Below, piece by piece: positions 33,557 through 50,894 of a stretch of 64,000 nucleotides of DNA; position 1 is the first letter of the stretch, and each line of letters opens with the position of its first letter. The position numbers and the translations under genes were made by a program. The DNA is from Vicinamibacterales bacterium (lineage in GTDB: Bacteria > Acidobacteriota > Vicinamibacteria > Vicinamibacterales > UBA8438): the NCBI GenBank assembly GCA_965197395.1, contig OZ240205.1:1501524-1565523 (forward strand), written 5' to 3'. The notes beneath the pieces were generated by a model. It was not told the DNA's origin. It saw nothing but the letters and a program-made list of their open reading frames with translations, and ran no database searches.

Positions 33557-35649
33557 GGTTCCACCGTGATTTGTCCCATCGCCCATGGATGATCCTCGCA
33601 CTGATACGTATGCGTGCCGGTGCGGTCCATTCTCACGTAGCCGGACTGCGCCCTGAGTAGCGGCCCGGTGCTCCAGGTCGCATCCATCGCCGACACGGTG
33701 TGCGTGATGTCACCGCTGTTGACGAAGGTGACGATGGTCCCGGCCTTCACGCGCACCCTCGCTGGACTGAACGCGTGCTCATCGACCGCGTATCGAAGGC
33801 CGACGCCGCGCTCGGCGCTCTGCACGAGCGTCGACGTCATGATCTCGTTCGTCTCACGACCGGCGGCGTCGCGGCGGGCCGCGGTCGGGGCCGGCTCCTC
33901 CTCGGGCACCGTGCCGCCGAGCGTGAACGCCCAGAGCTCGGGCCCCATCGCGATGGCGACGTGCTGCACACCGCCGGCTTCGTAGGTCGTCGACGGCCCG
34001 CGAGCGCCGCGCACGCCGGTCTGGAACTGCCACAGCCGCTCACCCGTCCCCGCGTCGTAGGCCTGGAACGTCCCGTCGCCCGCGCCTCGAAACATCAGCC
34101 CGCCAGCCGTGGTGAGCGGTCCACTGCCACCGAGGACGCGTGGGTCGACCTCGTGTTTCCAGACGACCTTGTTGGTCCGCGTATCGATGGCCGCGAAGAC
34201 GCCAATCGCATCGGGCAGGTTGGTATACGACGGGGCGCCGCCACGGAACCAGGGGTCGTTGGTGATGCGCCGTGCCCGGCCCACGTGCCCGGTGCCCTGC
34301 GCGTAGAGATAGCGGGTCTGTGGGCTATACGAGATGGCCGTCACGCGCACGCGAGGAATCGGGACGCCCGGCGCGACGACGTTGTGCCGGTCGACGTAGG
34401 GGGGTGTAAACCCACCACAATCGAGCACGAAGGGTGGCGCCACTTTGTCGCGCCACTGCGCACAGTCGCCCACGACGCTGTCGGCGCCAACGGGGAACGG
34501 CTGGGTCGGCGCCGTCAGGTTGTACGGATCCTGCGTGACCGGTCGCTCTTCTACGGGATACACCGGCTCGCCGGTTTCGCGGTCGAGGAGAAAGAAATAG
34601 CCATCCGCGCGCAGCGCGGCAAGGGCCGGCCGCGTCTGGCCGTCGACCTCCGCGTCGTAGAGCAGCGGCGCGATGGCGATGTCGGCGTCCCAGAGATCGT
34701 GGTGCACGACCTGGTAGTGCCATCGCAGGTTGCCGGTCTCCATCTCGAGGGCCAGGATGCAGGCCGTGTAGAGGTTGTCTCCCTGGCGTGCCTCGCCACC
34801 GAACATCGGCACGGCGTTGCCGGTCACGAAGTAGACGAGCCCGAGGTCGGGATCGGCGTTGCCCACGTGCCAGACGCCGCCTCCGCCCTGGTCCCAGACG
34901 TGCCCCCACTCGCCCTCCTGCGGCCACGTCTCGTGCCCCGGCTCGCCAGGACCCGGGATCGTATAGAACTCCCAGAGCAGCTCGCCGGTGTCACCGTCCA
35001 GCGCGACCACCTTGCCGCGGAACGCCCAGTCGCCGTTTGCCAAGCCGACGTAGACGACCCCGTTGGCGTAGAACGGCGCACCGGAGACCGCCTGCCCACG
35101 CTTGGGCGGGTCGTAGCCGATCTGCGTCGACCAGACGAAACCACCGGTCCCCTGGTCGAAGGCCGCGACTCGACCGTCCATGAGGCCCACGAAGACGTTG
35201 CCGTCTCCAAGTGCAACCCCGGGTGGCGATGGAATCGCGCGGCCCGCATTCAAGATGTAGCCGATGCCGGCGGCTTCGAGGTCGTCCGGGGCGTCTTCGT
35301 CAGGACGCACGACCCATACGGTCTCTCCCGTCGCCGCATCAAGCGCGTAGAGGCGCGTGCCGGAACCGATGAACATCACGCCGTCCTTGACGACCGGTGT
35401 CGCGCGCGTCGACGCCCCACCCTCGAACGTAAACGACCACGCCGCACCGAGCCGAGAGACGTTGTCGGTGCTGATCTCGGTCAGTGTCGAGTAGCGCGTG
35501 TTGGCCCAATCGCCGCCGATGAACGGCCAGTCCGTCCCGCCGAAACTGCGTCCATCGTCGGTCTGCGCGGAGCCGGATCGCGCCCCGCTAGCGATGAATG
35601 CGGCAGCGGTCAGTACGATTGGAGCAACCCATTGAAGGCGGCTGATCAC
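33553..35649 (-). CDS. Exported PQQ-dependent dehydrogenase (8-bladed propeller) fused to a C-terminal cupredoxin domain
   Basis: It has a signal peptide, 'GDNLYTACILALEMETGNLRWHYQVVHHDLWDADI' (quinoprotein glucose/alcohol dehydrogenase signature region) and W-containing blade motifs. The C-terminus 'VKAGTIVTFVNSGDITHTV...HTYQCEDHPWAMGQITV' carries a type-1 copper H...C-x2-H-x3-M pattern. Confidence 0.8.
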   Translation of the reverse strand: MISRLQWVAPIVLTAAAFIASGARSGSAQTDDGRSFGGTDWPFIGGDWANTRYSTLTEISTDNVSRLGAAWSFTFEGGASTRATPVVKDGVMFIGSGTRLYALDAATGETVWVVRPDEDAPDDLEAAGIGYILNAGRAIPSPPGVALGDGNVFVGLMDGRVAAFDQGTGGFVWSTQIGYDPPKRGQAVSGAPFYANGVVYVGLANGDWAFRGKVVALDGDTGELLWEFYTIPGPGEPGHETWPQEGEWGHVWDQGGGGVWHVGNADPDLGLVYFVTGNAVPMFGGEARQGDNLYTACILALEMETGNLRWHYQVVHHDLWDADIAIAPLLYDAEVDGQTRPALAALRADGYFFLLDRETGEPVYPVEERPVTQDPYNLTAPTQPFPVGADSVVGDCAQWRDKVAPPFVLDCGGFTPPYVDRHNVVAPGVPIPRVRVTAISYSPQTRYLYAQGTGHVGRARRITNDPWFRGGAPSYTNLPDAIGVFAAIDTRTNKVVWKHEVDPRVLGGSGPLTTAGGLMFRGAGDGTFQAYDAGTGERLWQFQTGVRGARGPSTTYEAGGVQHVAIAMGPELWAFTLGGTVPEEEPAPTAARRDAAGRETNEIMTSTLVQSAERGVGLRYAVDEHAFSPARVRVKAGTIVTFVNSGDITHTVSAMDATWSTGPLLRAQSGYVRMDRTGTHTYQCEDHPWAMGQITVEP

Positions 35650-35681: not shown

Positions 35682-35734
35682 CGTAGCGCGGGGCTTTAGC
35701 CCCGCAAAAGGCAGGACTGAAGTCCTGCCCTACG
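35682..35734 (+). repeat. Composite REP-like palindrome (outer stem plus two hairpins), copy 1
   Basis: The sequence is 'cgtagc gcggggc-ttta-gccccgc aaaa ggcaggac-tgaa-gtcctgcc ctacg'. It is intergenic, between the PQQ gene and the upstream gene. Confidence 0.8.
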
Positions 35735-35823: not shown

Positions 35824-38064
35824 CTACTTCGCCAATGGATCGGGCCGAATCTGGAAGTGCACCATCTTGCTCTTGGTGCCCTTGCCGCCTTCGGTGTGCC
35901 AGACGTAGTTCGTTCCGTAGTTGGCCCAGAGGCCACGGCCCTTCCACCCGGCGTTCGGATCGTCGATCCGTCCGTCGAGCCCCCGCGAGTAGAACGCCAT
36001 CGGATACGGCACGCGCAGGATGGTCCACTCGCCGCTCTCCGGATCGAGCGCCAGCAGTGAATCCGACGTCGAGCCGTCGGCGACCGGGATGTTTTCGCCG
36101 AGCCCGAGCGTGTTGTACTGGTCGACCCAGCTGTAGTAGTGGAAATCGGCACTGCCCGGTGTGTTGACACCCTTCATCTGCGGGCCCGGCACCTGATAGA
36201 GCGTCCAGCCTTCGGGGCAGTGCTGGCCGGTCGCGTCGGGGCCGTTCGTGACGGCGCACTCCGTCCGGTCGAAGCTCGCCATGTGGCTGCTACCTGACAG
36301 CGCCGTCCAGATGACGCCGTTCCGATCGACGTCAATGCCACGCGGCGCGCTGCCGGTCTTCATCGCGTCGATGTCGGGGTTCTCGATCGACGGCGGCTCA
36401 TAGACCTCGGCGATGCAGGTCTCGGGCGGGTTGTCGCCACGCTCGAGACGGACCAGACGGCCCGGGAAGGGCCCGGTGCGGCTGATCCAGATCGAGTCAT
36501 CGGTCGGGCTCGCGATGATGCCGTAGCCGAATCCGGCGATTCGCGTGTCCAGGCTCGAGTCGACCTCGCCCTCACCACGCGGGTTGGGCTCGTTCCATGG
36601 CTTGGTGATCTTGCCGTCGCCGTTGGTGTCGATGACCGTCGGGCACCATCCCTGCGAGAACCGCTCGTCGCCGGTCTCGTCGTAGACCTTCGTGTCGATC
36701 CAGCCGACGACATTGCCGTCGCCGCTGAACCAGAGCGTGTCGTTCGCATCCTCACCGAACTGCAGGTGATGGGTCCCGAAGCAGGTGTCGATCAGCACGA
36801 ATGCTTCGGTCTCCGGATCGTAATACGACGCCTGCCGACCGCTCCTCTCCACCGGGAAGAACTTCGCGTAGTCGTTATCCGACCCCTCCTTGCACCAGTC
36901 CGGGTTCGGACGAGCGCGAACGGTGGAGGTCATCCAGACGCGACCCTTCTGGTCCATCATCGGGTTGTGAGGATCAGCGGAGTTCTCGTGCCCGTCTGGC
37001 CCGCCAGCCCCCCAGAGGAGCTGGTCGCCCCAGTAATACGACGGCTGGAGCTGCGTCTGCGGGAAGCGCGACGGCACGCTGTCGGGATCGTCCGGTCGCA
37101 CCGGAATCGGCAGCTCGACGGCGGTGTTCGCGATCGGGTCGACGACGGTCAGGCTGCCGTGCCCTGCCGAGACACCGTAGACCGGTCCGTAGCCGTTGAC
37201 CGTCGGATTCCGCTTGTCCGTGGTGATCTCGTCGTGGATGAAGGCGCTGTCTTTCCCCCAGTCCCACAGGGTCACCACGAGATTCCGCTCGACGCCCTTC
37301 GGACGGGGCGGCCGGGGCGGCGTCTCGCCGGCGGCGATCCGGTCCGTCCAGTCGGCGAACATCTCGAGCGCGCGCTGTCGCCCGAACCGGTTCATCGTGC
37401 CGTTCATCGACGTGCCGCGCTGGCCGGTCTGGACGCGGTGATCCCATGCCGCCACGGTCGAGTCGAAGTCGTCGCGGCGCTGCACGACGCGCGTCGCGGT
37501 GTTGCCGAGCTGGTGGCAGAGCTGGCAGCCCTGCTTCATGACGTCGACCCACGCCCCCTGGCTCTTGAGGTTCTCCGAGATCCCGTTGCCGTCGGGACCG
37601 GTGCCGGGGAACTCATGCGCGGCCGGCGGCTCGATCAACGAGTACCAGTAGTTGCCGGGGTAGTACTGCGCCGCGGCTCGCTCGTTCGGTGCCACGACCC
37701 CGGTGAGACTCACCTCGTCGGTGGTCGGCGACAGCTTGACCTTCTCGGAATCGACCAGGCCATAGCCCCGCACCCAGACGTCGTAGGTCACGTCGGGCAG
37801 CTCGGGGAGCACGTATCGTCCGTTGTCGTCGGTCACGACGATCTTCACGAACTTCGTTTCGAGCTCCTCGGTCTCGGCGATGACCCAGACGCCGGCCTCA
37901 CGACCGGCGCTGCTCTCGACGACGCCGCTGATGTACCCATCGGCCGCCGCGGCCTCCTCGGCGCTTGGCAGGGCCACGATGGCGCCGATCAAGCCGCCGA
38001 GTGCCACCGTGCAAACGGCGAGACGCACCCGCGTGCGTCGTGGTGATTGTGTCCGCGCGCTCAT
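35824..38064 (-). CDS. Exported CarboxypepD_reg-like domain protein with a CxxCH motif and a large beta-rich C-terminal region
   Basis: It has a signal peptide. 'GYISGVVESSAGREAGVWVIAE...DDNGRYVLPELPDVTYDVWVRGYG' is a carboxypeptidase-regulatory-like fold. 'MKQGCQLCHQLGN' is a CxxCH motif. The start was trimmed to ATG 38064. Confidence 0.65.
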   Translation of the reverse strand: MSARTQSPRRTRVRLAVCTVALGGLIGAIVALPSAEEAAAADGYISGVVESSAGREAGVWVIAETEELETKFVKIVVTDDNGRYVLPELPDVTYDVWVRGYGLVDSEKVKLSPTTDEVSLTGVVAPNERAAAQYYPGNYWYSLIEPPAAHEFPGTGPDGNGISENLKSQGAWVDVMKQGCQLCHQLGNTATRVVQRRDDFDSTVAAWDHRVQTGQRGTSMNGTMNRFGRQRALEMFADWTDRIAAGETPPRPPRPKGVERNLVVTLWDWGKDSAFIHDEITTDKRNPTVNGYGPVYGVSAGHGSLTVVDPIANTAVELPIPVRPDDPDSVPSRFPQTQLQPSYYWGDQLLWGAGGPDGHENSADPHNPMMDQKGRVWMTSTVRARPNPDWCKEGSDNDYAKFFPVERSGRQASYYDPETEAFVLIDTCFGTHHLQFGEDANDTLWFSGDGNVVGWIDTKVYDETGDERFSQGWCPTVIDTNGDGKITKPWNEPNPRGEGEVDSSLDTRIAGFGYGIIASPTDDSIWISRTGPFPGRLVRLERGDNPPETCIAEVYEPPSIENPDIDAMKTGSAPRGIDVDRNGVIWTALSGSSHMASFDRTECAVTNGPDATGQHCPEGWTLYQVPGPQMKGVNTPGSADFHYYSWVDQYNTLGLGENIPVADGSTSDSLLALDPESGEWTILRVPYPMAFYSRGLDGRIDDPNAGWKGRGLWANYGTNYVWHTEGGKGTKSKMVHFQIRPDPLAK

Positions 38065-38131: not shown

Positions 38132-39607
38132 TCACGGCTGCTCTAGCTCGGCAGCGGCGGCGAGACGCTCTTCGGGCGACAGGTCTTCGGGCCGGCGCGT
38201 CCCTGCATCGAGGTCGGCGCCGAGCTCGGTCAGAAGCGCGACCAGGTGCGGATGACGGTTGAAGGTGTTCGGGTAGAACACCCCCTGCGCAATCGACAGG
38301 GCCGACCATCCCTTCCCGTTCACTGCGTCGATGTCGGCGCCGTTGTTGACCAGGAACCGCACGATGCCCTCGGCGCCGCGATGGATGGCTCCGTGCAGCG
38401 CGGTATCGCCGTTGGCGTCGACCGCGTTCACGTCGTTACCCAGCTCCCACGCCAGCGTCACCGCATCGAGCGCCTCGGGGTTGGTCCCGGGGTTTTCCCC
38501 GATCTTCCAGATTCCAACGCCGGCGGCCGCCATCAGCGGCGTCACGCCTTCCTCGGTCGTCACGGCAGGATCGGCCCCGAGCTCGATGAGCAACCGCATC
38601 ATCTCCACGTCGGCGACTTTTGCCGCCTGGAGAAAGGGCGTCGACCCGAGCCGCCGCAGCATGTTGCGATTCCCATCCCTCGGCTCTTTCGTCTGCCGTG
38701 CATCGACGTTGGCCCCGGCCGCCACGAGCGCACGCGCCATGTCGAGCCCGTCGAGCTCACCCAGTGGGACCGGGAACGGAGGGTTTCTGCCCAGGTTGGG
38801 GCGGCGCGTCCAGACGACTTGGTGCAGGGCCGTCCAGCCGTGTGCCTCGGCGTTCGCGTCGGCACCGGCGTCGAGGAGCGCCTCGGCGAAATCGTACTCG
38901 GCGTTGAAGACCGCGAGGACGAGCGCGCTCATGCCGGTCTTTGGCAGCGTGGCGTCGACGTTGGCCCCGCCGGCGGCGAGGACCTGCAGCATCTCGATGT
39001 GACCCTCGCGCGCGGCGAACAGCAGCGGTGTGAAGCCGGCCTCGGACCGCGCGTTGACATCGGCCTCCGCGTGGATCAGCGCCTCGGCCGCCGCGGTCTG
39101 GTTCTGCGCCGCCGCCCACATCAAGGCGGTTTGCCCGCGCCAGTCCTCGATCGCGTCCATCGCGGCGCCATGTGCGAGCAACACCCGTACAGCGTCGGCG
39201 TTGCCGGTCCGCGCCGCAGTCATGAGCGGCGTCTCACCCTCGGGGTTGGCGCGGTTGGCGTCGGCACCCGCCTCGAGCAGCCGGGTGATCATCGGCGTGC
39301 TCCCGTTGATCGACGCGAGCGCGAGCGGTGTCACGCCGTAGCGATTTGTCGGGTCGGCGGCCGCGCCGGCCGCGAGCAGCAGCTCGGCGAGCTCCAGATG
39401 GTTGCCGTGCGCCGCCCAGTGGAGCGCGGTCGTACCGTCGATCTCGGTCGCGTTGATATCGATGGCGTCGGTGATCAGGGTCCGCACCAGCGGCGCGTCA
39501 CCGGACTTGACGGCGTCGATGAGGGGCACTTCGCCCGCCGCCGCGAGAGCAGTCACCGCAAGACAAACCATCAAGAGACAGGCAAAGCCGCGTTGCATCA
39601 TCGTCAT
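38132..39607 (-). CDS. Secreted ankyrin-repeat protein (cassette copy A)
   Basis: The signal-like N-terminus is 'MTMMQRGFACLLMVCLAVTALAAAG'. There are many ANK units ('DGTTALHWAAHGNHLELAELLLAAGAAAD', 'GETPLMTAARTGNADAVRVLLAHGA', and others). The start is ambiguous (39607, 39601, 39598 or 39658) because of the 51-bp duplication. Confidence 0.85.
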   Translation of the reverse strand: MTMMQRGFACLLMVCLAVTALAAAGEVPLIDAVKSGDAPLVRTLITDAIDINATEIDGTTALHWAAHGNHLELAELLLAAGAAADPTNRYGVTPLALASINGSTPMITRLLEAGADANRANPEGETPLMTAARTGNADAVRVLLAHGAAMDAIEDWRGQTALMWAAAQNQTAAAEALIHAEADVNARSEAGFTPLLFAAREGHIEMLQVLAAGGANVDATLPKTGMSALVLAVFNAEYDFAEALLDAGADANAEAHGWTALHQVVWTRRPNLGRNPPFPVPLGELDGLDMARALVAAGANVDARQTKEPRDGNRNMLRRLGSTPFLQAAKVADVEMMRLLIELGADPAVTTEEGVTPLMAAAGVGIWKIGENPGTNPEALDAVTLAWELGNDVNAVDANGDTALHGAIHRGAEGIVRFLVNNGADIDAVNGKGWSALSIAQGVFYPNTFNRHPHLVALLTELGADLDAGTRRPEDLSPEERLAAAAELEQP

Positions 39608-39702
39608 CGACCATCCGTCGCGGGGCTGAAGCCCCGCGCTACGGGAGATCCTCGTCATCGACCATCCGTCGCGGGGCTGAAGCCCCGCGCTACGGGAGAT
39701 CC
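39601..39702. repeat. Perfect 51-bp tandem duplication (2 copies), each carrying a REP-like hairpin and an ATG
   Basis: 39601..39651 and 39652..39702 are identical: 'tcgtcatcgaccatccgtcgcggggctgaagccccgcgctacgggagatcc'. Confidence 0.95.
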
Positions 39703-39706
39703 TCGC

Positions 39707-41062
39707 CTACACCCCGCTCAACGGCTCGAGCGGCAAGCGCCCGGTGCTGTCACCCAGCTCCTCCGCAGGCACCCCCACTTTGTCGAGCATGCTCACGAGC
39801 AGGTTCGTCATCGGGGTTTCACCGTCGAACTTGACCTGCCGGCCCCCCTCGATCGAGCCGGCGCCGCCGCCCGCGAGGATGAGCGGTAGGTCCATGTGCG
39901 AATGCTGGTCACCGTCACTGATCCCGCCACCGTAGAGGATCATCGCCTGATCCAGCAGCGTCCCGTCGCCGTCAGGCGTCGCCTTGAGCTTCTCGAGGAA
40001 GCCGGCGAGGAGACTGACCTCGTAGGTGTTGATCAGCGCGTATTTCTCGAGCCTTTCGGCGTCCAACTGGTGATGCGACATCGCATGGTGCGGGTCGGGC
40101 ACGCCGATCTCCGGGAAGCTCTGCGACGTCTGTTCGCGGCCGATCAGGAACGTGAAGACGCGCGTGATGTCGGCCTGGAACGCAAGCGCCTGCAGCTCGA
40201 ACATCAGCTTCGCATGCTCGTCGAACGACTCGGGCACGCCGACCGGACGCTCGAGCACCTCGGGCAGCGCCGCATCGGTCTGCGCCTCGGAGCGCTGGAT
40301 CCGTCGCTCGATTTCCCGCACCGCGTCGAGATACTGCGTGACGCGCGAGCGGTCGCCGGCACCGAGCGTGCGCTCGAGCCGCGCCATGTCTTCGCGGACG
40401 GCGTCGAGGATGCTGCGGTCGTCCTGCAGCCGCGCGGCGCGTTGCTCCTCGGTGCCGCCTTCCCCGAAGAGCCGCTCGAAGACGACCCGCGGGTTGTGCT
40501 CCATGGGCAATGGCGTGGTCGGCGACCGCCAGGAGAACGTGTTCGTGTACACGCAGCTATAGCCGTTGTCGCAATTGCCGACGACGAAGCTGTTCTCCAG
40601 CGCGAGCTCCAGGGACGGCAACGGCGTGTCCTGACCGAGCTTGGCGGCCGCGAGCTGATCGACCGTCGTGCCCGCCCGCACGTCAGCGCCTTCGGTGCGC
40701 TTTGGATGGACGCCGTTGAGCCACACCGAGCTCGCGCGCGAGTGCTCCCCGTTGCCGTCGCCCCACGCCTCGGCCTGCCGGTGATCCAGGCCGCTCGGGA
40801 TCACGACCTGGTCGCGGACGTTGGCCAGCGGCTGCAGGATGCGCGAGAGCTCGAGCGCCCCGCTCGGGCCCTTCGGCGTCCACTGCGACATGTTGGCGCC
40901 GTTCGGGATGTAGATAAACCCGAGCCTCGGCACCGCCTTCGCCGCCGTCTTGGCCAGGGCGGACGCGGCTGGGACCATCGCGTCGAGCAGCGGTAACGCC
41001 AGCGTCGCGCCCATCCCGCGCAGGAAGGTACGTCGCGGCAGCGACCTCTTCGTGATGATCAT
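39707..41062 (-). CDS. DUF1552 domain-containing protein with twin-arginine signal (cassette copy A)
   Basis: The N-terminus is 'MIITKRSLPRRTFLRGMGATLALPLLDAM'. It is collinear with the paralogs at 61319..62668 and 47828..49168. It has an ATGA overlap with the upstream gene. The track ORF (to 42337) over-extends into a shadow frame. Confidence 0.85.
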   Translation of the reverse strand: MIITKRSLPRRTFLRGMGATLALPLLDAMVPAASALAKTAAKAVPRLGFIYIPNGANMSQWTPKGPSGALELSRILQPLANVRDQVVIPSGLDHRQAEAWGDGNGEHSRASSVWLNGVHPKRTEGADVRAGTTVDQLAAAKLGQDTPLPSLELALENSFVVGNCDNGYSCVYTNTFSWRSPTTPLPMEHNPRVVFERLFGEGGTEEQRAARLQDDRSILDAVREDMARLERTLGAGDRSRVTQYLDAVREIERRIQRSEAQTDAALPEVLERPVGVPESFDEHAKLMFELQALAFQADITRVFTFLIGREQTSQSFPEIGVPDPHHAMSHHQLDAERLEKYALINTYEVSLLAGFLEKLKATPDGDGTLLDQAMILYGGGISDGDQHSHMDLPLILAGGGAGSIEGGRQVKFDGETPMTNLLVSMLDKVGVPAEELGDSTGRLPLEPLSGV

Positions 41063-43449
41063 GACGGCGATCTCCTCATCCGAAACGGCACGCTGTCGAC
41101 GACGCCCAGGATGAGCGACGACAGACGGTAATCGTTCTCGGCCGCGTTGCGGACGATGGACCGGACCGCCGCGGCATCGTAATACTCGACCCCACGCCCC
41201 AGCGCGTAGGTCAGGAGCTTCTCGGTCACGGTGGTCACGAAGCGGTCGGGATGCCGCAGCAGCGCGGCTTTCAGCCCGGCCGGTCCGTCGTATTCGCTGC
41301 CGTCGGGCAGCACGCCCGAGGCGTCGATCGCGGCCTTCGTCTCGCTTCGGTCGCGCCAGCGCCCGACCGCGTCGAAGTTCTCCAGCGAGAGGCCTGGCGG
41401 ATCCATGAGCAGGTGGCAGCTGGCGCAGACGGGGTTGGCGCGATGCTGCTCCATCGCCTCCCGCATCGACAGCGGCGCCCCACCCTCGGCGGTCTCGAGG
41501 TCGGGCACATCGGGCGGCGGGGGCGGTGGCGGCGTGCCGAGGATGTTCTCGAGAATCCACTTTCCACGGAGCACGGGTGAGGTCCGGTTGGCATACGACG
41601 TGACCGTGAGAATGCTGCCGTGACCGAGCAACCCACCCCGGACATCGTCCTCCAGCGTGACGCGTCGGAAGTGGCTGCCGCGCACGTTCGGGATCCCGTA
41701 GTGCTGGGCCAACCGCTCGTTGACAAAGGTATAATCCGCGGCCAGCAGATCGAGCGTATTGCGGTCCTCGCGGAGCACGCTGGTGAAGAGGAGCTCGGTC
41801 TCCCGCCGGAACGCCTGCCGCAATCCCTCGCCGAAGTCGGGGAACGCGTCCTCGTCGGGCGTCACGGCGGCCGCGTTGCGTAGGGTCAGCCACTGGCCGG
41901 CGAAGTTCGTCACCAGCGCCTCCGACCGCGGATCGGCGAGCATCCGGCGCACCTGGCGCTCGAACTCTGTTGGGTCCGCGAGCACGCCGCGGGCCGCCAC
42001 GTCGAGCAGCTCGTCGTCCGGGATACTGCTCCAGAGAAAGAACGACAGCCGCGACGCGAGCTCCAGATCGCTGAGCCGATAGTTCGTTCCCGGGCCGACG
42101 CCGTCCGGATCGCGCTCGACCCGAAACAGGAACTCGGGGCTGACGAGCAGTCTGCGGAGCGCCATCTCGATGCCGGTTTCGAAGCTGCCCTGCGCACGGC
42201 CCCGCTCGTAGAACGTCAGCAGCCGCGCCACGTCGTCGCCAGTGACCGGTCGCCGATACGCCCGACGCCCGAGCCGGGAGAGGATCTGCCGGGCACAGGC
42301 GATTTCGTCGGCCGGCGCGGTACGGGCCGGGCGGCAAACGAACACGCGGGCGTAGCTCGGAGTCTCATCGATCGGACGCGCGCCGCTCGCCTCGTACGGA
42401 CCGGCGATCGTGACGCTCTCGACGTAGGGCTGATACCGCGAATCGCCGCCGGAGCCTTCTCCGGTGAACGGCCGCAGATACAGCTTGCGAATGCCCTCCG
42501 GCTCGGCCGAGGTCTTCCGCAGAAAGGCCACACCCACCTGGCGAGGCCCGGCCTTGATCGGGATGCGCACCTTCAGCGTGTCGATGGTGGGGACATACAA
42601 GCCGCGCGGATCGTCGGGGTCGGGCGCCTTGCCGACCGACAGCAACTCGACGCGCTCGCCGTCGACGGTCACCTCGAGCTGGTGTGGCTCGATGCGCAGT
42701 GGGCCGTCGGGCATGACCTCGATGACGTAGTCCGCGTCCTCGGGGAAGTTGTAGTCGACCAGCACGCCGCCGCGTGTCCCGAACGGCAGCCCTTCGAGAC
42801 GCTCGTCTTGCCCGAGATCCGAGGCGATGCGAAAGGTGTCCGCGGTCGGTGACGGCACCGGAGATGCGACCGCCAGGCGGCTGATCTTGCGCGCCGCCGA
42901 GAGGTAGCGCTCCATCAGCGTCGGCGAGACGCCGAGCACACCGGCGATGTTGTCGAATCCGTAGCTCGTATCGTCGGCCGGCAACAGCTGGTCGACGTCC
43001 GCGTCGAGCGCCAGCAGGTCGCGCACGGCGTTGCGGTACTCGGTGCGGCTCAGGCGGTGAAACGTCTCGGTGCGACCCGGATTGGGATTCGAGGCCGCCG
43101 CGCGATCGAGCTCACGCTCGAGCCGCGCGCGAAACCCGTCATAGGCCTCCTGGTCCGGACGCGGTCTGGGGCGCGGTGGCATCGCGCCGGCCCTCAGCTT
43201 CCGGACGACCTTCTCGAAGGCCTCGGGGTGCGCCGCGACATCGTCGACGTCGATCGCGTCGAAAGAGAACCCTCCGGTCCGGAGCCGGTCGTTGTGGCAG
43301 GTGGTGCAGTAGCGGTCGACGAGGGCGCGCTCCGCCGAGACGACGCCCGTAGCGGTCTCCTGCCCACCGCCGGTGGCAGATAGATCGATCGACCCTGCGC
43401 AGACCGCTGTCAAGACGGCGGCGACGGTGACAGACAGACCTCTCAGCAT
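41059..43449 (-). CDS. Exported multi-domain DUF1592/DUF1595/DUF1588/DUF1585-family protein with two CxxCH motifs (cassette copy A)
   Basis: It has a signal peptide. The N-terminus has 'YCTTCHNDRLRTGGFSFD' and the C-terminus has 'ANPVCASCHLLMDPPG'. 'RLSFFLWSSIPDDELL' and 'TSPVLRGKWILENILGTPPPPPP' are typical of this planctomycete-type family set. Confidence 0.8.
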   Translation of the reverse strand: MLRGLSVTVAAVLTAVCAGSIDLSATGGGQETATGVVSAERALVDRYCTTCHNDRLRTGGFSFDAIDVDDVAAHPEAFEKVVRKLRAGAMPPRPRPRPDQEAYDGFRARLERELDRAAASNPNPGRTETFHRLSRTEYRNAVRDLLALDADVDQLLPADDTSYGFDNIAGVLGVSPTLMERYLSAARKISRLAVASPVPSPTADTFRIASDLGQDERLEGLPFGTRGGVLVDYNFPEDADYVIEVMPDGPLRIEPHQLEVTVDGERVELLSVGKAPDPDDPRGLYVPTIDTLKVRIPIKAGPRQVGVAFLRKTSAEPEGIRKLYLRPFTGEGSGGDSRYQPYVESVTIAGPYEASGARPIDETPSYARVFVCRPARTAPADEIACARQILSRLGRRAYRRPVTGDDVARLLTFYERGRAQGSFETGIEMALRRLLVSPEFLFRVERDPDGVGPGTNYRLSDLELASRLSFFLWSSIPDDELLDVAARGVLADPTEFERQVRRMLADPRSEALVTNFAGQWLTLRNAAAVTPDEDAFPDFGEGLRQAFRRETELLFTSVLREDRNTLDLLAADYTFVNERLAQHYGIPNVRGSHFRRVTLEDDVRGGLLGHGSILTVTSYANRTSPVLRGKWILENILGTPPPPPPPDVPDLETAEGGAPLSMREAMEQHRANPVCASCHLLMDPPGLSLENFDAVGRWRDRSETKAAIDASGVLPDGSEYDGPAGLKAALLRHPDRFVTTVTEKLLTYALGRGVEYYDAAAVRSIVRNAAENDYRLSSLILGVVDSVPFRMRRSPS

Positions 43450-43771
43450 CGAGCTCCGGGGACCCCGCAGAACTTCCTCGTGGAACCTACAGAAACCGTT
43501 AAGCGTAAGAAACAGCCTAGTTTGTACGAACCGCGCGGGAGGTGTCAATCACTCAGTGCGCCATCGATTCCCGGTGCGGCCGCGCCCAATCAACCCCACG
43601 CCGGCTGGCCGCTGGCGCCGAGGCGGACGGGCCCCACACCCCGATTCGGATGATGCGAACTGGCCGCTCGGAGGGCTATGATGGGGCCGCAGCGCCCACG
43701 TGTGGATCCGTCGGACCCAGTGCGGCGTCACGTGTCGTCGGCCGGCCCATCAACCTGAAAGGACGGCAGTC

Positions 43772-44851
43772 ATGGCCTCTTCACGACGGCGATTCCTGCG
43801 GAGCGCAGCGGCGATGGGGGGCGCGGCGTTTGGCGGACGCGCGACGGCCTGGAACGACATCGCGTTGGCGCGTGAGGCTCCGACAGCGCGCTTCTCCCCA
43901 ACTGCGCTGCTCGCCGAGCACGAAGCGGAGCAGGCAGCTCCCGCCGCCGCCAGTGCTGCGACTGCGCAGTCCGATCCGCGGATGCCAACCCAGGCGGAGG
44001 TGGAGTCGTGGTACACCGACCGGCGCAACTGGGGACGGTGGGGCGACGACGACCAGAAGGGCGCGGTCAACCTGATTACGCCAGCGAAGAGCGCTGCGGC
44101 GGCGGCAATGGTGCGGACGGGGCGGAAGGTCTCGCTGAGCCGGGTCTTCGAGCCGCCCCAACATTTCATGCGCAAGAGTCCCCGACCGGGCGGCGCCGGC
44201 GCCGTGGTCGACTACTACGGCTTCATTTACCACGGCCAGACGATCACCCATATCGACGGTCTCTGTCACATGTGGGACCGCGACGGAATGTGGCAGGGCC
44301 GCGACCCCGACGTCGAGGTGACCTCGCAGGGGGCCCACTTCGGCACCATCGACGCCTGGAGCGACGGCATCATCACGCGCGGCGTCCTGATCGACGTGCC
44401 ACGGCATCGGGGCGCGTCGCACGTCACCCCCGGGAACCCGGTCCAGGGCTGGGAGATCGAGGAAGCGGCGCGTGAGCAAGGGGTCGCGGTCGAACCGGGT
44501 GACGCGTTGCTCGTCTACAGCGGGCGGGAGCGATTCATGGCGGCCGGTGGTGAGTACGCCGGCGGTGACCGGCCGGGGCTCGGCGTCACCTGCGCCAAGT
44601 TCATCCGCGATCACGACGTGTCGCTCCTTGGTTGGGACATGATGGACGCGCGCCCGGATCCCTACGGGATGGCATTCCCGGTTCACGGCGTGCTCTTCAA
44701 CTACGGCGTCGCCCTGCTCGACAACGCCCTGCTGGAGCCGCTGGCTGACGCGTGCGCCGAAGAAGGCCGGTACGAGTTCATGTTCATGGGTCTGCCGCTC
44801 AAGGTGGCACGCGGCACCGGCAGCCCAGCGAATCCCATCGCGATGTTCTAG
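43772..44851 (+). CDS. Cyclase family protein (kynurenine formamidase-like fold) with Tat signal
   Basis: The N-terminus is 'MASSRRRFLRSAAAMGGAAFG'. 'GQTITHIDGLCHMW' is a variant of the cyclase HxGTHxDxPxH region. An RBS 'gaaaggacgg' lies upstream of ATG 43772. Confidence 0.65.
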   Translation: MASSRRRFLRSAAAMGGAAFGGRATAWNDIALAREAPTARFSPTALLAEHEAEQAAPAAASAATAQSDPRMPTQAEVESWYTDRRNWGRWGDDDQKGAVNLITPAKSAAAAAMVRTGRKVSLSRVFEPPQHFMRKSPRPGGAGAVVDYYGFIYHGQTITHIDGLCHMWDRDGMWQGRDPDVEVTSQGAHFGTIDAWSDGIITRGVLIDVPRHRGASHVTPGNPVQGWEIEEAAREQGVAVEPGDALLVYSGRERFMAAGGEYAGGDRPGLGVTCAKFIRDHDVSLLGWDMMDARPDPYGMAFPVHGVLFNYGVALLDNALLEPLADACAEEGRYEFMFMGLPLKVARGTGSPANPIAMF

Positions 44852-44911
44852 CGGAGGAGGAATGAGGGCACGTCCTGTGCCCCCACATCCCGGAGTTCGC
44901 TTGTGTGACAA

Positions 44912-44961
44912 CGTAGCGTAGGCCTTTAGGCCTGCGGGCCAGGCTGAAGCCTGGCGCTACG
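44912..44961 (+). repeat. Composite REP-like palindrome, copy 2
   Basis: 'cgtagcg taggcc-ttt-aggcctg cg ggccaggc-tgaa-gcctggc gctacg' has the same architecture and orientation as copy 1, with compensatory stem changes. Confidence 0.75.
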
Positions 44962-45065
44962 AATGGCGCGCACGCGTGAGCTCCGCGATAGTCGCCACCG
45001 TCCGGGTCAGCGGCTGACGGCGGTCTTGCGGAAGTGGCGCGCGTGTAGAAGGTCGATAGACGATA

Positions 45066-45603
45066 TTAGACACCCCCGTTAACGGAAGATCCGTTAGAGG
45101 CTTTGTTGTAGATCACCGGCATTCGCCCTTTCCACTTCTCCCATATGTCATCTCCAGTGATCAGATCTGCCATGAAGTGAGCCACGTTGATTCGACTGGT
45201 CACGCCCGCATCAAAGGTCGCGCTTCTAATCGGTGAAGGATGGATTTCGTACTCGGTGACTTCGGCCTCATTGATCAACGTGTCCGGACGAACCGCAGCC
45301 CACTCGATGTCACTGTCGCTGTGGCCGATCGCGACTCGCAAATAGTCCGCAGACTGTTCATTGTCCACGTGTGGTCAGCAGTAGACGAAGAAGCCCAATG
45401 ACGCACTTCTGACGAAACGAAACCCGCTCGTCAAGATCGCGGTTGCTGTTGCCAACCGTGTTCATGAGCACAAACCTGTTTGGCGTCGCGGACGTGCCTG
45501 CCTTGATAGCCTTGCACAAGCGGCGAACTGTATCCGTGACAAGCCTGCGCGGATGTCCGTAGAGACCCTTCACGCTCATGTTGTGTCCCAGACACGAAGC
45601 CAC
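45066..45603 (-). pseudogene. NAD(P)H-binding (atypical SDR/NmrA-like) gene remnant: N-terminally truncated and frameshifted
   Basis: Two adjacent ORFs in different frames join as '...FVLMNTVGNSNRDLDERVSFRQKCVIGLLRLLL' / 'VDNEQSADYLRVAIG...WAAVRPDTLINEAEVTEYEI'. No Rossmann GxxGxxG part is present. GC content is clearly lower (~50% by eye) than the surroundings. Confidence 0.5.
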
Positions 45604-45920
45604 CTGTCCACCGGCTTCGCTCTGGCTTGTTCCGGTGACATGTACGCCGCCGTCCCGAGGATGATGCCCGCCCTTGTAGCAACAGCGGTGAGCGTCGGGG
45701 ACTGCGATGGGTCGCCTTCGGGTGTCGTGTCTAACGCCTTCGCCAGCCCGAAATCCACCACCTTGGCGGTCCCGTCGTCGCGCACTTTGATGTTCGCGGG
45801 CTTGAGGTCCCGATGGATCACGCCCGCTTCGTGGGCGGCCTCCAACGCCTCGGCGATCTGCTTCGCAATCGGCAGCGCCTCATCCAGCGGGATCGGCCCC
45901 TTCGCTATCCGGTCGCAAGG
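45576..45920 (-). pseudogene. Internal fragment of a Ser/Thr protein kinase catalytic domain
   Basis: 'ALEAAHEAGVIHRDLKPANIKVRDDGTAKVVDFGLAKAL...GTAAYMSPEQARAKPVD' covers subdomains VIb-VIII only. There is no Gly-loop/VAIK part upstream and no continuation downstream. Confidence 0.6.
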
Positions 45921-45939
45921 GTCGGGCCCCGGCCCGCAG

Positions 45940-46155
45940 GTGAGCTTCGACGTTCGCAGCCTGTTCTTCACGCAGAAGCAGTTGCGTGGATCAATGGCCG
46001 GCGACATCGAGGACCTGCAGTGGGGTCTGGAGCAAGTCCGCGCAGGGCGCATCAGACCTCTCGTAGACTGGACCCTGCCGCTCAGCGAGGCGGCCGAGGC
46101 ACATCGTCTGATCTCGACGAACCAGGTGGCCGGCAACCTCGTGTTGCTGCCGTGG
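45940..46155 (+). pseudogene. C-terminal fragment of a zinc-type/quinone oxidoreductase (MDR family)
   Basis: 'VSFDVRSLFFTQKQLRGSMAGDIEDLQWGLEQVRAGRIRPLVDWTLPLSEAAEAHRLISTNQVAGNLVLLP' matches only the last ~70 aa of MDR oxidoreductases. No upstream part is present. Confidence 0.5.
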
Positions 46156-46192
46156 GCAGCACAGGAAGCAGGGCAGGAGGGTGATTTGACGA

Positions 46193-46447
46193 ATGCCGTT
46201 AACGGACCTCCGCGGTCTCGTTCGGACCGCCGACGACACGCTCGCCGGGGGTGTGCGGGTGTTTCTTGGTCTGCTGTTTTTGATGACCGGCGTGATGAAG
46301 CTGGTCGTGCCGATGCTCGCTGACGCCTGGGCAGGCCAGTTGCTGGCGGCCGAGCTCCCGTTCTTCGCGCTGTCCCGCTTGAGTGTCCCGTTCGTGGAGA
46401 TGGCGGTCGGGGCGCTACTGGTGGTCGCGTCTCGATCGCGCGTGTAA
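46193..46447 (+). pseudogene. DoxX-family membrane protein, C-terminally truncated
   Basis: 'GGVRVFLGLLFLMTGVMKL...PFVEMAVGALLVV' is followed by an early stop. At 84 aa it is short of the ~130-150 aa I expect for the family. Confidence 0.4.
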
Positions 46448-46473
46448 TGCGAAACGGGACCGGCGATTCGAGA

Positions 46474-47799
46474 TTACGGCTTCGCGATGTTCCAGTACAC
46501 GCCGGCGCCGCCGCCAGCGTTTCCGATGCGGGCCAACAGCGCGACTCGCTCGAGGTCCTCGGAGCGTCCCTCCGGGTCGGTGAACGCGTAGATCGCCTGC
46601 CCCCGGTTCTGACCGGGCACCGTGTCGCCCGCGTAGGTGTAGAGCGCGAACCCCTTATAGGCCCACTGGTTGGTGCCATCCCGCCGGGTGATGACTTCCC
46701 AGAAGCCGCTCGACCGCGCACCGTCAGGCGCGCTGAACGGACGCCAGGTCTCCAAGCAGTCGACATCTGCGCAGGCATCGCCGCCGAGTCGCTTCCCCCT
46801 GAAGTAGGCGACCTTGAAGCTGTCGCGCAGGTTTCGCCCGCCGAAATACTTCTCGAAGGCCGAGCCGATGTACAGGGTCATGCCGTTCAATGACAGGACA
46901 TCACCGTACCCCTCCAGCGCGGTGACGGCCACGTCGGGAGGGCTGAAGTGCGTCGTGAGCGCGGCCACCTCCCACCTGACATCGACCCCCGGCTTGCGAA
47001 CATCTCCGGGCAGCAGGTCGCCCCCGTGGCGATAGAGCGGACGCTCCTTGTACGCCCACTGCCTGAAGCCGTCCGCGCGGGTCATGACGGAAAAGTCGCC
47101 AACGTCGAGGGCGAGCGCGGAAGCCGCCACGGGCAGCCACTGACTCCCGCGTGGGGCGTCGCCGGCGAATGTGTAGAGGGGACGACCGGCGAAATCGGTC
47201 AACACGACCGCCCGCGCCGAGGCCACCAGCCCGACCTCGATGCCGGCCGGCCGCGGCATCGACGCCGCCGGATCGAACCGAGCGACCTCCCAGCCCTCGG
47301 GTGGCACCAGCGACCCCGCCTCCACCGGCCCCGCCGCGGTCTTCGAACTCGCCGTCTCGGCCAGACCGACGTTGGTGGCAACCTCTCCCGGCTCCTGCTC
47401 CTTCGACCAGGTGTACAGGGGACGCGACCGATACGCCCATTGCAGCTGTCCATCTGCCCGGCGCACCAACGACCAGTCGCCGAACGCGCTCGCGTCATCG
47501 TCCTGGGCTAGCAGTGGCGGGAATTCCGCGGCGCAGTCACCTGCGCAATTCGAGACGCCGGGCTGGTCGCCGTGGGAGAACAAGAGGGTCCAGCCCCCGG
47601 CGTCCCCGAGCCGCGTCCACAGCACCTGGTCCGACGAAATCGGCAAGTCCCTGACCACCTCCACCAGGGTCACACCTGGCGGCGTGGTCGACAGCACCAC
47701 CCATTCCTCCCCCGACGCAGACGACGGGGCCGCGACGACGACCGCCGTGATGACGAGCGAGAACCAGCCCGCCGATGCAGAGTGTCGCACACACATCAT
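46474..47799 (-). CDS. Exported repeat protein of the COG4315 / 'lipoprotein with Yx(FWY)xxD motif' type
   Basis: The repeated units are 'DGQLQWAYRSRPLYTWSKEQEPGEV', 'DGFRQWAYKERPLYRHGGDLLPGDV' and 'DGTNQWAYKGFALYTYAGDTVPGQNRG'. The start was trimmed to ATG 47799 (signal 'MMCVRHSASAGWFSLVITAVVVAAPSSASG'). Confidence 0.7.
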   Translation of the reverse strand: MMCVRHSASAGWFSLVITAVVVAAPSSASGEEWVVLSTTPPGVTLVEVVRDLPISSDQVLWTRLGDAGGWTLLFSHGDQPGVSNCAGDCAAEFPPLLAQDDDASAFGDWSLVRRADGQLQWAYRSRPLYTWSKEQEPGEVATNVGLAETASSKTAAGPVEAGSLVPPEGWEVARFDPAASMPRPAGIEVGLVASARAVVLTDFAGRPLYTFAGDAPRGSQWLPVAASALALDVGDFSVMTRADGFRQWAYKERPLYRHGGDLLPGDVRKPGVDVRWEVAALTTHFSPPDVAVTALEGYGDVLSLNGMTLYIGSAFEKYFGGRNLRDSFKVAYFRGKRLGGDACADVDCLETWRPFSAPDGARSSGFWEVITRRDGTNQWAYKGFALYTYAGDTVPGQNRGQAIYAFTDPEGRSEDLERVALLARIGNAGGGAGVYWNIAKP

Positions 47800-47827: not shown

Positions 47828-49168
47828 TCACGCCAGGAGCTCGGTGAAGGGCCTCGACACCTGATTCGACTCGGTGCCCCAGCTTCCACGACCGACACCC
47901 AAAGCCTGCTGCACCGTGAACCCCACACGCGTCGCCGCGTCACCTTCCGCGGCGATATGGTAGCCCGTCTTCATCCGGCCACCGCCGCTGCCGGCGGTGA
48001 GAATCGGCAGGCGTTTCATCGAGTGCATTCTCGCCTCGCCGTGGTCGGTAAACGCAAAGATCACGCTTCGATCGAGCAGCGTGCCGTCGCCTTCGCGGAT
48101 CGCGTCCAACGCCTGCACGAGCTCCACGAAGAAACCCATGCATCGCTCCGCGATCCACTTGCACTTGACCTGATACCCGAGCTGCGTATCGACCGGTTCT
48201 TCGTGCGTCAGCGCATGATAGCCATTCGGCTCTCCCGGCGCGCGGAGCCTGGAGAGCGACGCACCCAGGGTGAGGTTGAAGACCCGCGTCTGACCGCAGG
48301 CCAAGGCATGCGCCATCAATTGCGCGAATTGCCGGTGCGTTTTTTCCACCTGGGGGAGGAGCGGACCGATGTCGTCGGTCGCGGCGCCGGGCATCGTACA
48401 CGCCGGCAGCGGTTCAGGTTTCTCCAGCTCGAACGCGAGCTTCTGCTCGAGATCGCGAACGGACGAAAAATACTCGTCCAACCGCGCACGATCCGACGCC
48501 GACACGGCGCCCATGAGATCCTTCCGCTGGTCCGCCACCGCCGACAGCACGCTCTGGCGCACCATCGTCCCCGGGTCGGGCACGAAGTCTGCCCCACTCG
48601 GATCGCGGAAACCGTCCCCGAAGATGCGGGTGTAGAGGGCAAGCGGTGATGTCGCGGAAGGGTTCATACCACTCGATCCGCGCGCGCTCCAGCCGGCCCG
48701 GCTGTCGCCGCCGCTGGTGGCCTCGAGAGAACGGAACCGCGTGCCCTTGCCGATCTGTTCGCCAATGATGGTGTCGATGCTCGCCGTGTAGTTGCTGGCG
48801 TTCCGCGACACCCTGCCGGTCGCCTGGCCTTGCGCGCCCGAGAAGTGGTTCTGGTTGATCTTGCCGTCGAGGAAGACCTGCATCCCGCTGAAGAGGTTCA
48901 TCTTCGGCTTGATCGCTTGCAAGCCGGCAATGTGTTCCGGCAGCTCGTAGTCGACGCCGGTGGTCGCGGGCTCCCAGCGGCCGGGAGCCAGGCCGAGTCC
49001 CCAGAACCAGGTGCCGAAACAGGGCTGTAGCCGCGCGCCGGTTGCCGCGTAGGCGGTGCCGTTGGTGTTCAGGAAACACTCCAGTATCGGTAGCCCGACG
49101 GCAACCGCCGTTCCGCCCAGGAAACCCCGCAGTACGGTGCGGCGGTCAACCTTCTTGATGTCACTCAT
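47828..49168 (-). CDS. DUF1552 domain-containing protein with Tat-like signal (divergent third copy)
   Basis: The N-terminus is 'MSDIKKVDRRTVLRGFLGGTAVAVGLPILE'. It is collinear with the other two DUF1552 proteins ('FTDHGEARMHS...LPILTAGSGGG' versus 'GGGISDGDQHSHMDLPLILAGGGAG'). Confidence 0.8.
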   Translation of the reverse strand: MSDIKKVDRRTVLRGFLGGTAVAVGLPILECFLNTNGTAYAATGARLQPCFGTWFWGLGLAPGRWEPATTGVDYELPEHIAGLQAIKPKMNLFSGMQVFLDGKINQNHFSGAQGQATGRVSRNASNYTASIDTIIGEQIGKGTRFRSLEATSGGDSRAGWSARGSSGMNPSATSPLALYTRIFGDGFRDPSGADFVPDPGTMVRQSVLSAVADQRKDLMGAVSASDRARLDEYFSSVRDLEQKLAFELEKPEPLPACTMPGAATDDIGPLLPQVEKTHRQFAQLMAHALACGQTRVFNLTLGASLSRLRAPGEPNGYHALTHEEPVDTQLGYQVKCKWIAERCMGFFVELVQALDAIREGDGTLLDRSVIFAFTDHGEARMHSMKRLPILTAGSGGGRMKTGYHIAAEGDAATRVGFTVQQALGVGRGSWGTESNQVSRPFTELLA

Positions 49169-49200
49169 CTTGATCTCCCCATGCCCTCAACACTTCAACC

Positions 49201-50814: not shown

Positions 50815-50894
50815 GCCAACCCTCCCCTCGGCGGCGTCCCGATCGTCGGGGTCGCGGCGTCCGGCTCGTGTCTCCACCAGGGTGAACATACCCC

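Follow-up and report, generated by a model that had tools for sequence, protein, structure and literature searches.

A secreted ankyrin-repeat protein as probable third partner of one clade of exported heme-protein/DUF1552 gene pairs

Gene pairs encoding a large PSCyt3/PSD protein and a DUF1552 protein form a conserved association whose function is not known (He et al. 2017, PMC5615132). Pairs of PSCyt3/PSD2-5 and DUF1552 genes came to notice in Rhodopirellula baltica and were afterwards described from Verrucomicrobia as well (PMC5615132, citing Studholme et al. 2004). A sister system based on DUF1501 is likewise without known function; in some of its PSCyt1/2-DUF1501 variants, additional partners for protein interaction (WD40, Big_2) occur (Kamneva et al. 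2012, PMC3542564). Published speculation on PSCyt systems has included carbohydrate-related roles, and a comparison of domains in Pseudomonas singled out these domains as possible players in anaerobic respiration. With its heme-protein partner, DUF1552 constitutes a large exported system, present in manyfold copies in abundant soil and freshwater Acidobacteriota, Planctomycetota, and Verrucomicrobiota. Here, we analyze a 64,000-nt stretch of contig OZ240205.1 from a Vicinamibacterales bacterium (hereafter the window), in which such a pair is accompanied by a gene encoding a secreted ankyrin-repeat protein. The trio of genes occurs twice, as copies A and B (table 1). The literature that we found on the PSCyt3/PSD-DUF1552 pairing and on DUF1501 modules does not mention an ankyrin partner. 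The large-protein/DUF1552 pair is thus known, and its third partner appears not to have been reported before.

An initial annotation of the window, made from its letters alone, had described copy A as three minus-strand genes and had placed a second triad at 59867-64000. We confirmed the coordinates and open reading frame (ORF) lengths, all family assignments hold in hidden Markov model (HMM) searches against Pfam, and the second triad comprises the same three families. The statement that no function had been established for the large-protein/DUF1552 pairing agrees with PMC5615132. This pair belongs to the PSCyt3/PSD-HXXSHH pairing, all defining features tested on the large protein being present. 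It shares with the PSCyt3/PSD2-5 and DUF1552 pairs the same Pfam domains (DUF1585/1587/1588/1592/1595) in the same order, a large gene directly preceding a DUF1552 gene with a twin-arginine motif, and multiple paralogous copies per genome. It differs from the described pairs by a secreted 12-repeat ankyrin as a near-constant third member and by its hosts, which are mainly Acidobacteriota and not bacteria of the Planctomycetes-Verrucomicrobia-Chlamydiae group. Similarly, the PSCyt1/PSCyt2/PSD1 and DUF1501 systems of Planctomycetes, Verrucomicrobia, and Lentisphaerae (PMC3542564) combine an exported CxxCH protein with a twin-arginine enzyme-like protein and are heavily duplicated. However, the Pfam families differ for both partners, and the accessory module is fused or of WD40 type in these systems, whereas it is a separate periplasmic ankyrin protein here.

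Distribution of the ankyrin gene

We fetched 80 genomic loci through an alignment of DUF1552 proteins (52-86% identical to that of copy A) and scored all their ORFs with custom HMMs for the three families. These loci originate from Vicinamibacterales, Bryobacteraceae, other Acidobacteriota, and Verrucomicrobiota/Akkermansiaceae; the closest relatives of the window proteins are encoded by metagenome-assembled genomes (MAGs) of Vicinamibacterales (Acidobacteriota). An orthologous ankyrin gene adjoins the pair in 73 loci, in three arrangements: directly downstream on the same strand (56 loci), immediately upstream of the large gene and divergent from it (12 loci), or upstream on the same strand (5 loci). 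It lies 2 kb away in one locus (L019), the contig is cut or one side is missing in five, and a single locus (L054) has no ankyrin gene within 3.5 kb upstream and 6 kb downstream. The large gene is found upstream of the DUF1552 gene in 76 of the 80 loci. According to a rough tree, the arrangement changed at least about six times. The neighborhoods of three ankyrin orthologs (66-73% identical) all have the order large gene, DUF1552, ankyrin within unrelated flanks. As several loci (L007, L034), like the window, carry two trios side by side, the module duplicates as a unit.

The three proteins also diverge together. Among 59 trios, pairwise identities correlate at 0.81 for DUF1552 and ankyrin, 0.87 for DUF1552 and the large protein, and 0.87 for the large protein and ankyrin, values that are confounded by shared phylogeny; none of 999 permutations reached the observed correlation in a Mantel test. 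Adjacency in 73 of the 80 loci, maintained through about six changes of order and in several phyla, together with this co-divergence, strongly supports a functional unit of three genes. The initial annotation had argued for such a unit from the recurrence of the triad and had proposed a gene-neighborhood survey; co-occurrence with the ankyrin extends well beyond the source genome. Our preferred reading, held with moderate confidence, is a periplasmic three-protein module in which the ankyrin would be a dedicated adaptor or assembly partner.

Alternatively, the ankyrin gene could be a passenger without functional link, its adjacency reflecting common descent of a chromosomal segment. The origin of most surveyed loci from two acidobacterial orders fits this view, as do the generic character of ankyrin conservation and the existence of distant DUF1552 pairs without ankyrin (see below). 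We nevertheless consider it very improbable, as the flanks vary between loci while the trio persists, adjacency outlasts the repeated changes of order and orientation, the three proteins co-diverge, and each paralogous trio of a genome or window has retained an ankyrin of its own. Furthermore, the trio is found in Verrucomicrobiota as well as on a megaplasmid of an alphaproteobacterium. This megaplasmid (NZ_CP117882.1), found by a tblastn search against plasmids, carries the full trio at about 943.3-948.5 kb in the cultured Novosphingobium sp. KACC 22771, with a DUF1552 protein 46% identical to that of copy A. This cultured host makes genetics and biochemistry of the trio feasible.

Within the trio, DUF1552 and ankyrin may form the tighter link. 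In three loci from Bryobacterales MAGs (L036, L045, L074), they are adjacent with no DUF1592-type gene directly upstream. A beta-lactamase-family or PQQ-type (pyrroloquinoline quinone) gene sits where the large gene would be. This DUF1552-specific linkage, seen in these three loci and in the 56 with the ankyrin directly downstream, would also suit a periplasmic inhibitor or regulator keeping DUF1552 inactive or gated until its substrate is present. Of the three proteins, the ankyrin evolves fastest (mean pairwise identity of 45% vs. 55% and 53% for its partners), as expected of a specificity-determining binder, and a hairpin-containing spacer in copy A could uncouple its expression. Conversely, the genes abut in copy B and in many loci, which implies stoichiometric co-expression, and nothing points to a toxicity logic, the flanking genes examined including none for polymorphic toxins or secretion systems. 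Although computation does not distinguish it from the adaptor reading, we regard inhibition as quite unlikely.

The association stops at the border of one clade. Five more distant pairs have no ankyrin (L085, L087-L089, and pair C of the window), a thin sample of the family members that lack it. Their DUF1552 proteins are 36% (a short metagenomic locus, the only one returned by a scan with a representative of this identity, of which only the downstream side is visible), 34% (Planctomyces sp. SH-PL62, where a DUF1080 gene follows), 30% (Chondrinema litorale), 27% (Sphingobium herbicidovorans, L089, pMSHV, NZ_CP020539.1 44.9-49.1 kb), and 23% (pair C) identical to that of copy A. Because these five pairs, all at 36% identity or less, do without it, the ankyrin is an accessory of one clade, with DUF1552 proteins about 46% or more identical to copy A, and not of the whole family. 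The proposal that it is a fixed third partner therefore stands within this clade and fails outside it. The DUF1552 family comprises 18,867 representative clusters (50% identity, E up to 1e-3). The ankyrin clade makes up a small share of them, as estimated from the range of identities among the representatives listed. As pair C is followed by a gene encoding a SCO0930-like protein, different subfamilies have different third genes in the same genome. The ankyrin marks a clade in which the logic of accessory subunits can be compared with that of ankyrin-less relatives in one genome. We also considered the N-terminal heme domain of the large protein as a marker of ankyrin linkage and rejected it, since the Chondrinema protein has two CxxCH motifs and no ankyrin. 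In the Sphingobium locus, genes annotated as cytochrome c and as a cytochrome b/b6-domain protein come after the DUF1552 gene, an independent hint of a connection between the system and membrane electron transfer.

The large protein and the DUF1552 protein

The large protein starts with a signal-like hydrophobic N-terminus, followed by a cytochrome-c-like domain with a CTTCH motif at residue 48 and a GAMPP methionine, by DUF1587, a beta-sandwich, DUF1595, DUF1592, DUF1588 with a CASCH motif at residue 675, and DUF1585. It had been described as a signal-peptide protein of ~800 aa with these two motifs and the DUF1595/1592/1588/1585 block, which Pfam and ORF reading confirm with the addition of DUF1587. 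All five domains score far above their gathering cut-offs (23-34 bits) and follow the canonical order: DUF1587 at residues 132-194 (84.5 bits, E = 7.2e-24), DUF1595 at 385-445 (79.6 bits, 2.2e-22), DUF1592 at 459-586 (164.7 bits, 1.8e-48), DUF1588 at 604-701 (127.2 bits, 3.2e-37), and DUF1585 at 716-789 (86.6 bits, 9.4e-25). A borderline match to Cytochrome_CBB3 (4.8e-06) covers the first CxxCH. Residues C48/C51/H52, M90 of GAMPP, and C675/C678/H679 are invariant among 34 orthologs. The 58 triad-linked homologs all have exactly two CxxCH motifs, and all 58 retain CASCH (residues 675-679), which falls within the PSCyt3 (DUF1588) region. A sequence search against chains of the Protein Data Bank (PDB) gave no match for the large protein. 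In a low-confidence AlphaFold2 (AF2) model (predicted local distance difference test, pLDDT, of 46.4), the beta-sandwich (residues ~228-330) repeatedly but weakly matches the carbohydrate-binding modules (CBMs) CBM35, CBM6, and CBM36 as well as carbohydrate-binding domains of BcsB, with target template modeling (TM) scores of ~0.5 and E of 3e-3 or higher. These matches are only suggestive of a carbohydrate-binding-like module, which would agree with the published mention of CBMs in some PSCyt proteins.

The DUF1552 protein of copy A begins MIITKRSLPRRTFLRG and contains DPHHAMSHH, in which the H-x-x-S-H-H motif reads HAMSHH, as well as SDGDQHSHMDLP. Its match to PF07586 (E = 2.2e-99, 333 bits for a cut-off of 30) and its PRRTFLRG motif agree with the ~450-aa DUF1552 protein with a twin-arginine 'RRTFLRG' signal that had been annotated. 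R10 and R11 of this motif are conserved in at least 90% of 64 diverse members of the family. The Pfam TAT_signal model gives E = 0.22 on the copy A protein and matches 25 of the 64 members. Conservation extends beyond the arginines into the LALPLLDAM stretch that follows, where all 64 members share P24 and at least 90% of them L23 and L26. This is unusual for a cleaved signal peptide, and the N-terminus may be retained as an anchor or docking element.

Seven residues, H107, D135, S150, D237, H326, H330, and H387, are invariant in the 64 members, whose mean identity is 40%, and H331 is at least 90% conserved. This His/Asp/Ser set is suggestive of a metal site. The initial annotation had seen in the His/Asp-rich blocks, whose residues are among the invariant ones, a hint of a metal-dependent hydrolase or phosphatase-like fold, a proposal that the invariant residues, structural searches, and a profile link to DUF1501 favor, and for which no direct sequence match was obtained. 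A Foldseek search with the AF2 model of DUF1552 returned almost only members of the alkaline-phosphatase superfamily, with a TM score of ~0.3 for the whole protein: S1 sulfatases ranked first (best E = 4.3e-4; e.g., PDB 6pt4 and 1e2s), before YejM, GacH, iPGM, autotaxin, and alkaline phosphatase. This model has a pLDDT of 58.8, falling below 50 around most of the seven invariant residues; both AF2 runs used 34-40 close orthologs, that is, multiple sequence alignments (MSAs) shallow in diversity. By profile comparison (hhalign), DUF1552 is related to DUF1501 with 86% probability (E = 5e-6) over a C-terminal strand and D-x-H region, and in the same region DUF1501 gives weak matches to sulfatase and phosphodiesterase models and structures. 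Conversely, DUF1552 searched as a single sequence and as two profiles had no match among PDB chains, and none of the 64 members matched the alkaline-phosphatase clan of Pfam at E up to 5.

On this evidence, a sulfatase/alkaline-phosphatase-like metalloenzyme distantly related to DUF1501 is moderately supported for DUF1552. The superfamily, and S1 formylglycine sulfatases in particular, provide the best structural matches of the DUF1552 model and, through DUF1501, would share with it the C-terminal strand and D-x-H. The formylglycine motif of sulfatases is C-x-P-x-R...L-T-G; at the corresponding position, as read from the sequence, DUF1552 has a conserved H-[AS]-R-x(4-6)-[FL]-[LT]-G. Unlike S1 sulfatases, it lacks CxPxR, and its conserved residues are His-rich (H107, H326, H330, H331, H387). 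It also differs from the alkaline-phosphatase superfamily by its pairing with a c-type cytochrome.

The ankyrin protein and its possible role

The ankyrin protein of copy A begins MTMMQRGFACLLMVCLAVTALAAAGE, followed by an N-cap and 11 canonical repeats, which makes 12 in all when G-x-T-P/A-L motifs are read along the sequence; loops are inserted at two or three places. It matches the Pfam models Ank_2 (E = 2.2e-62, 208 bits) and Ank (191 bits) and belongs to a large family of orthologs of ~490 aa, 65-99% identical to it; the orthologs of DUF1552 and of the large protein are as well conserved. Forty-six of 58 ankyrin orthologs have a hydrophobic, signal-peptide-like N-terminus, in line with the ~490-aa ankyrin with its own signal peptide of the initial annotation. 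With the twin-arginine translocation (Tat) motif of DUF1552 and the Sec-type leader of the large protein, export signals are thus predicted on all three proteins, and the module is most likely an exported, periplasmic protein system.

The ankyrin protein gives repeat-level matches to type IV secretion system (T4SS) Ank effectors of Legionella and to MzaA, and to the 'Ankyrin' model of PADLOC (NCBIfam, PADLOC), from which a secreted effector against eukaryotic hosts or an anti-phage defense locus might be imagined. These matches remain far under the family cut-offs (e.g., 127 bits vs. 600), none of the proteins has a specific model in NCBIfam, and the large protein, DUF1552, and the 746-aa protein encoded downstream of copy A are without PADLOC match. 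The hosts are free-living Acidobacteriota of soil and water, and the flanking genes examined included none for secretion systems. We therefore discarded the host-directed effector, on account of the sub-threshold NCBIfam matches, and the defense system, for which PADLOC gave generic repeat-level matches only; either role is scarcely conceivable.

The closest functional analogy for the ankyrin seems to lie in catalase-associated ankyrins. As cited in PMC7567364 and PMC11442138, AnkB is needed for KatB activity in Pseudomonas aeruginosa, where the catalase-linked ankyrin is periplasmic; in Campylobacter jejuni, Cj1386 binds hemin (Tyr57) and delivers it to KatA; and Leptospira has an ank-katE operon. 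The ankyrin gene is co-transcribed with a heme-enzyme gene in these precedents; in the trio, it likewise stands beside a heme-protein gene, and the ankyrin carries an export signal. It might accordingly be pictured as a chaperone for the trafficking of heme or metal, or for maturation, serving the hemoprotein or DUF1552, a role that we judge rather unlikely. The partner enzyme of the precedents is unrelated, being a catalase with a noncovalent heme b. Covalent attachment of c-type hemes is the task of dedicated maturation systems and requires no delivery protein. Catalase-partner ankyrins are also much smaller than the 12-repeat, 491-aa protein, to which no similarity was found beyond the repeats. 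No conserved Tyr, His, or Cys was seen outside the repeat consensus in the ortholog alignment, three loci keep ankyrin and DUF1552 with no heme protein directly upstream, and the genes examined around the window copies and in the surveyed loci include none for a catalase. Membership of the catalase-associated group is thus not supported.

In the adaptor reading that we prefer, the large protein, exported by a Sec-type route, would serve in heme-based electron transfer or sensing and possibly in substrate binding through its beta-sandwich, and DUF1552, presumably exported by Tat, would probably be the catalytic, metal-dependent subunit. The three proteins would meet in the periplasm, where the ankyrin solenoid, tied most closely to DUF1552, would bind it or the enzyme-cytochrome pair as an adaptor, assembly, or stabilizing subunit. 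It may thereby provide, in trans, a module for binding proteins or substrates of the kind found fused to the large protein in other subfamilies. Multiplication of the trios as units within genomes points to a substrate-diversified role in nutrient acquisition or oxidation rather than to housekeeping, in line with the published speculation on carbohydrates. The physical complex, the role of the ankyrin, the DUF1552 fold, and any chemistry are what we infer; the ankyrin lends itself as bait for co-purification and as a target for complex prediction from paired MSAs.

Several points weigh against an adaptor of a periplasmic enzyme. L054 has no adjacent ankyrin in spite of being a close relative, and more distant DUF1552 pairs exist without one. 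Ankyrin conservation lies almost entirely at generic repeat-consensus positions, and no partner-specific motif was found in the ortholog alignment. The mirror-tree correlation shares the confounding noted above. As both AF2 models are poor, fold assignments lean on weak matches. Finally, alkaline-phosphatase-superfamily enzymes are mostly hydrolases or transferases, which leaves the role of a two-heme partner unexplained.

A bolder and unlikely version would be an obligate periplasmic holoenzyme of a new class, in which a sulfatase-fold DUF1552 metalloenzyme, a two-heme, CBM-bearing cytochrome, and a stoichiometric ankyrin subunit carry out redox-coupled transformation of glycans or organic esters in soil Acidobacteriota. 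If true, it would provide a rare, possibly the first, catabolic or respiratory enzyme complex with a bacterial periplasmic ankyrin among its subunits, and a first functional foothold on the PSCyt/PSD-DUF1552/DUF1501 systems. Independently of this version, few bacterial periplasmic ankyrin proteins have been characterized, and a conserved ankyrin family tied to one enzyme system would broaden the known roles of bacterial ankyrin repeats.

Gene layout and neighboring genes

The features of the window are listed in table 1. Copies A and B are 65% identical in their DUF1552 proteins and 61% in their ankyrins. The initial annotation had overlooked a third, divergent pair (pair C, 47828-51159) and the gene encoding a 746-aa CxxCH protein directly after ankyrin A. 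Its description of three translationally coupled genes holds for the large and DUF1552 genes, joined by an ATGA overlap in both copies, and for ankyrin B, whose GTG start adjoins the DUF1552 stop (TAAGTG). It does not hold literally for ankyrin A, because a 99-nt spacer precedes this gene.

Table 1. Coordinates of the trios, of pair C, and of neighboring features in the window
Feature	Coordinates	Strand	Description
Copy A gene 1, large protein	41059-43449	minus	796 aa, exported, two heme-c motifs
Copy A gene 2, DUF1552/HXXSHH	39707-41062	minus	451 aa, twin-arginine motif PRRTFLRG
Copy A gene 3, secreted ankyrin-repeat protein	38132-39607	minus	491 aa
Copy A spacer, DUF1552 to ankyrin	39603..39701	minus	48-nt tandem hairpin element
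Copy B gene 1, large protein	62665 to beyond 64000	minus	DUF1595/1592/1588/1585 portion and CASCH; 5' part outside window
Copy B gene 2, DUF1552	61319-62668	minus	449 aa
Copy B gene 3, secreted ankyrin	59867-61318	minus	483 aa
Pair C, DUF1592-type ORF	49201-51159	minus	one CxxCH; divergent
Pair C, DUF1552	47828-49168	minus	23% identical to copy A DUF1552
SCO0930-like secreted lipoprotein-repeat protein	46474-47700	minus	3' of pair C; takes the place of the ankyrin
Exported protein after ankyrin A	35824-38064	minus	746 aa, one CQLCH, CarboxypepD_reg-like N-terminal domain
PQQ dehydrogenase	33553-35649	minus	further downstream of ankyrin A
Beta-propeller protein	32471-33601	minus	further downstream of ankyrin A
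'Cyclase' gene	43700-44851	divergent	upstream of triad A
PIN-domain toxin gene	59073-59471	minus	directly downstream of ankyrin B

The spacer of copy A contains two exact 48-nt tandem copies, with a 51-nt period, of a GC hairpin element, GCGGGGCTTCAGCCCCGC. Its predicted RNA fold has a free energy of -61.6 kcal/mol (z = -3.3). A related hairpin with similar flanks is present at 35688-35705, in the gap between the 746-aa gene and the PQQ dehydrogenase gene, and GCGGGGCTTCAGCCCCGC looks like a small intergenic element resembling repetitive extragenic palindromic (REP) sequences. The 48-nt duplication creates an in-frame ATG that would extend the ankyrin A ORF to 508 aa. We rejected this start as probably spurious because it falls inside the repeat and the orthologs have 486-491 aa. 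A scan for sigma-70 promoters found none, and no convincing terminator was found between the genes.

Outside the trio, 13 of ~83 loci is the most that any gene family reaches, and we accordingly rejected PQQ dehydrogenases, TonB-like porins, the cyclase, metallo-beta-lactamases, and a ~390-aa family, each found in at most 13 of them, as members of the unit. This last family, which has no Pfam match, is the most frequent extra neighbor (13 loci). Its gene often comes immediately behind that of the ankyrin or DUF1552, and some loci have more than one copy (e.g., L077:9135-10373, L081:9095-10270, L084:7341-8489, L064:9016-10065). PQQ-dependent dehydrogenases or PQQ_2 beta-propellers lie near the trio in about ten loci (L045, L052, L039, and L002/L003 among them). 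Periplasmic quinoproteins normally pass electrons to c-type cytochromes, and a loose functional link of these proteins to the trio is conceivable.

The 746-aa gene follows the ankyrin gene in L001, L005, L026, and L035 and not in most other loci. With only these four other occurrences, the protein was rejected as a universal fourth member of the trio, and it may be one in the closest subclade. Searches against Pfam, NCBIfam, and the PDB gave no family assignment beyond its CarboxypepD_reg-like domain. In L001, a PIN gene and a small ORF are inserted between the ankyrin and 746-aa genes (L001:10539-11173). Together with the PIN gene at ankyrin B, they are probably toxin-antitoxin cassettes that landed at the same intergenic position.

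Between triad A and pair C, the region 44900-46800 has a lower GC content (0.636) and is without a clean long gene. An ORF at 45576-46778 ends in a fragment of a Ser/Thr-kinase catalytic loop (HRDLKPANI...DFG) fused to unrelated Arg/Pro-rich sequence. This suggests that the region consists of gene remnants or is a rearranged segment.

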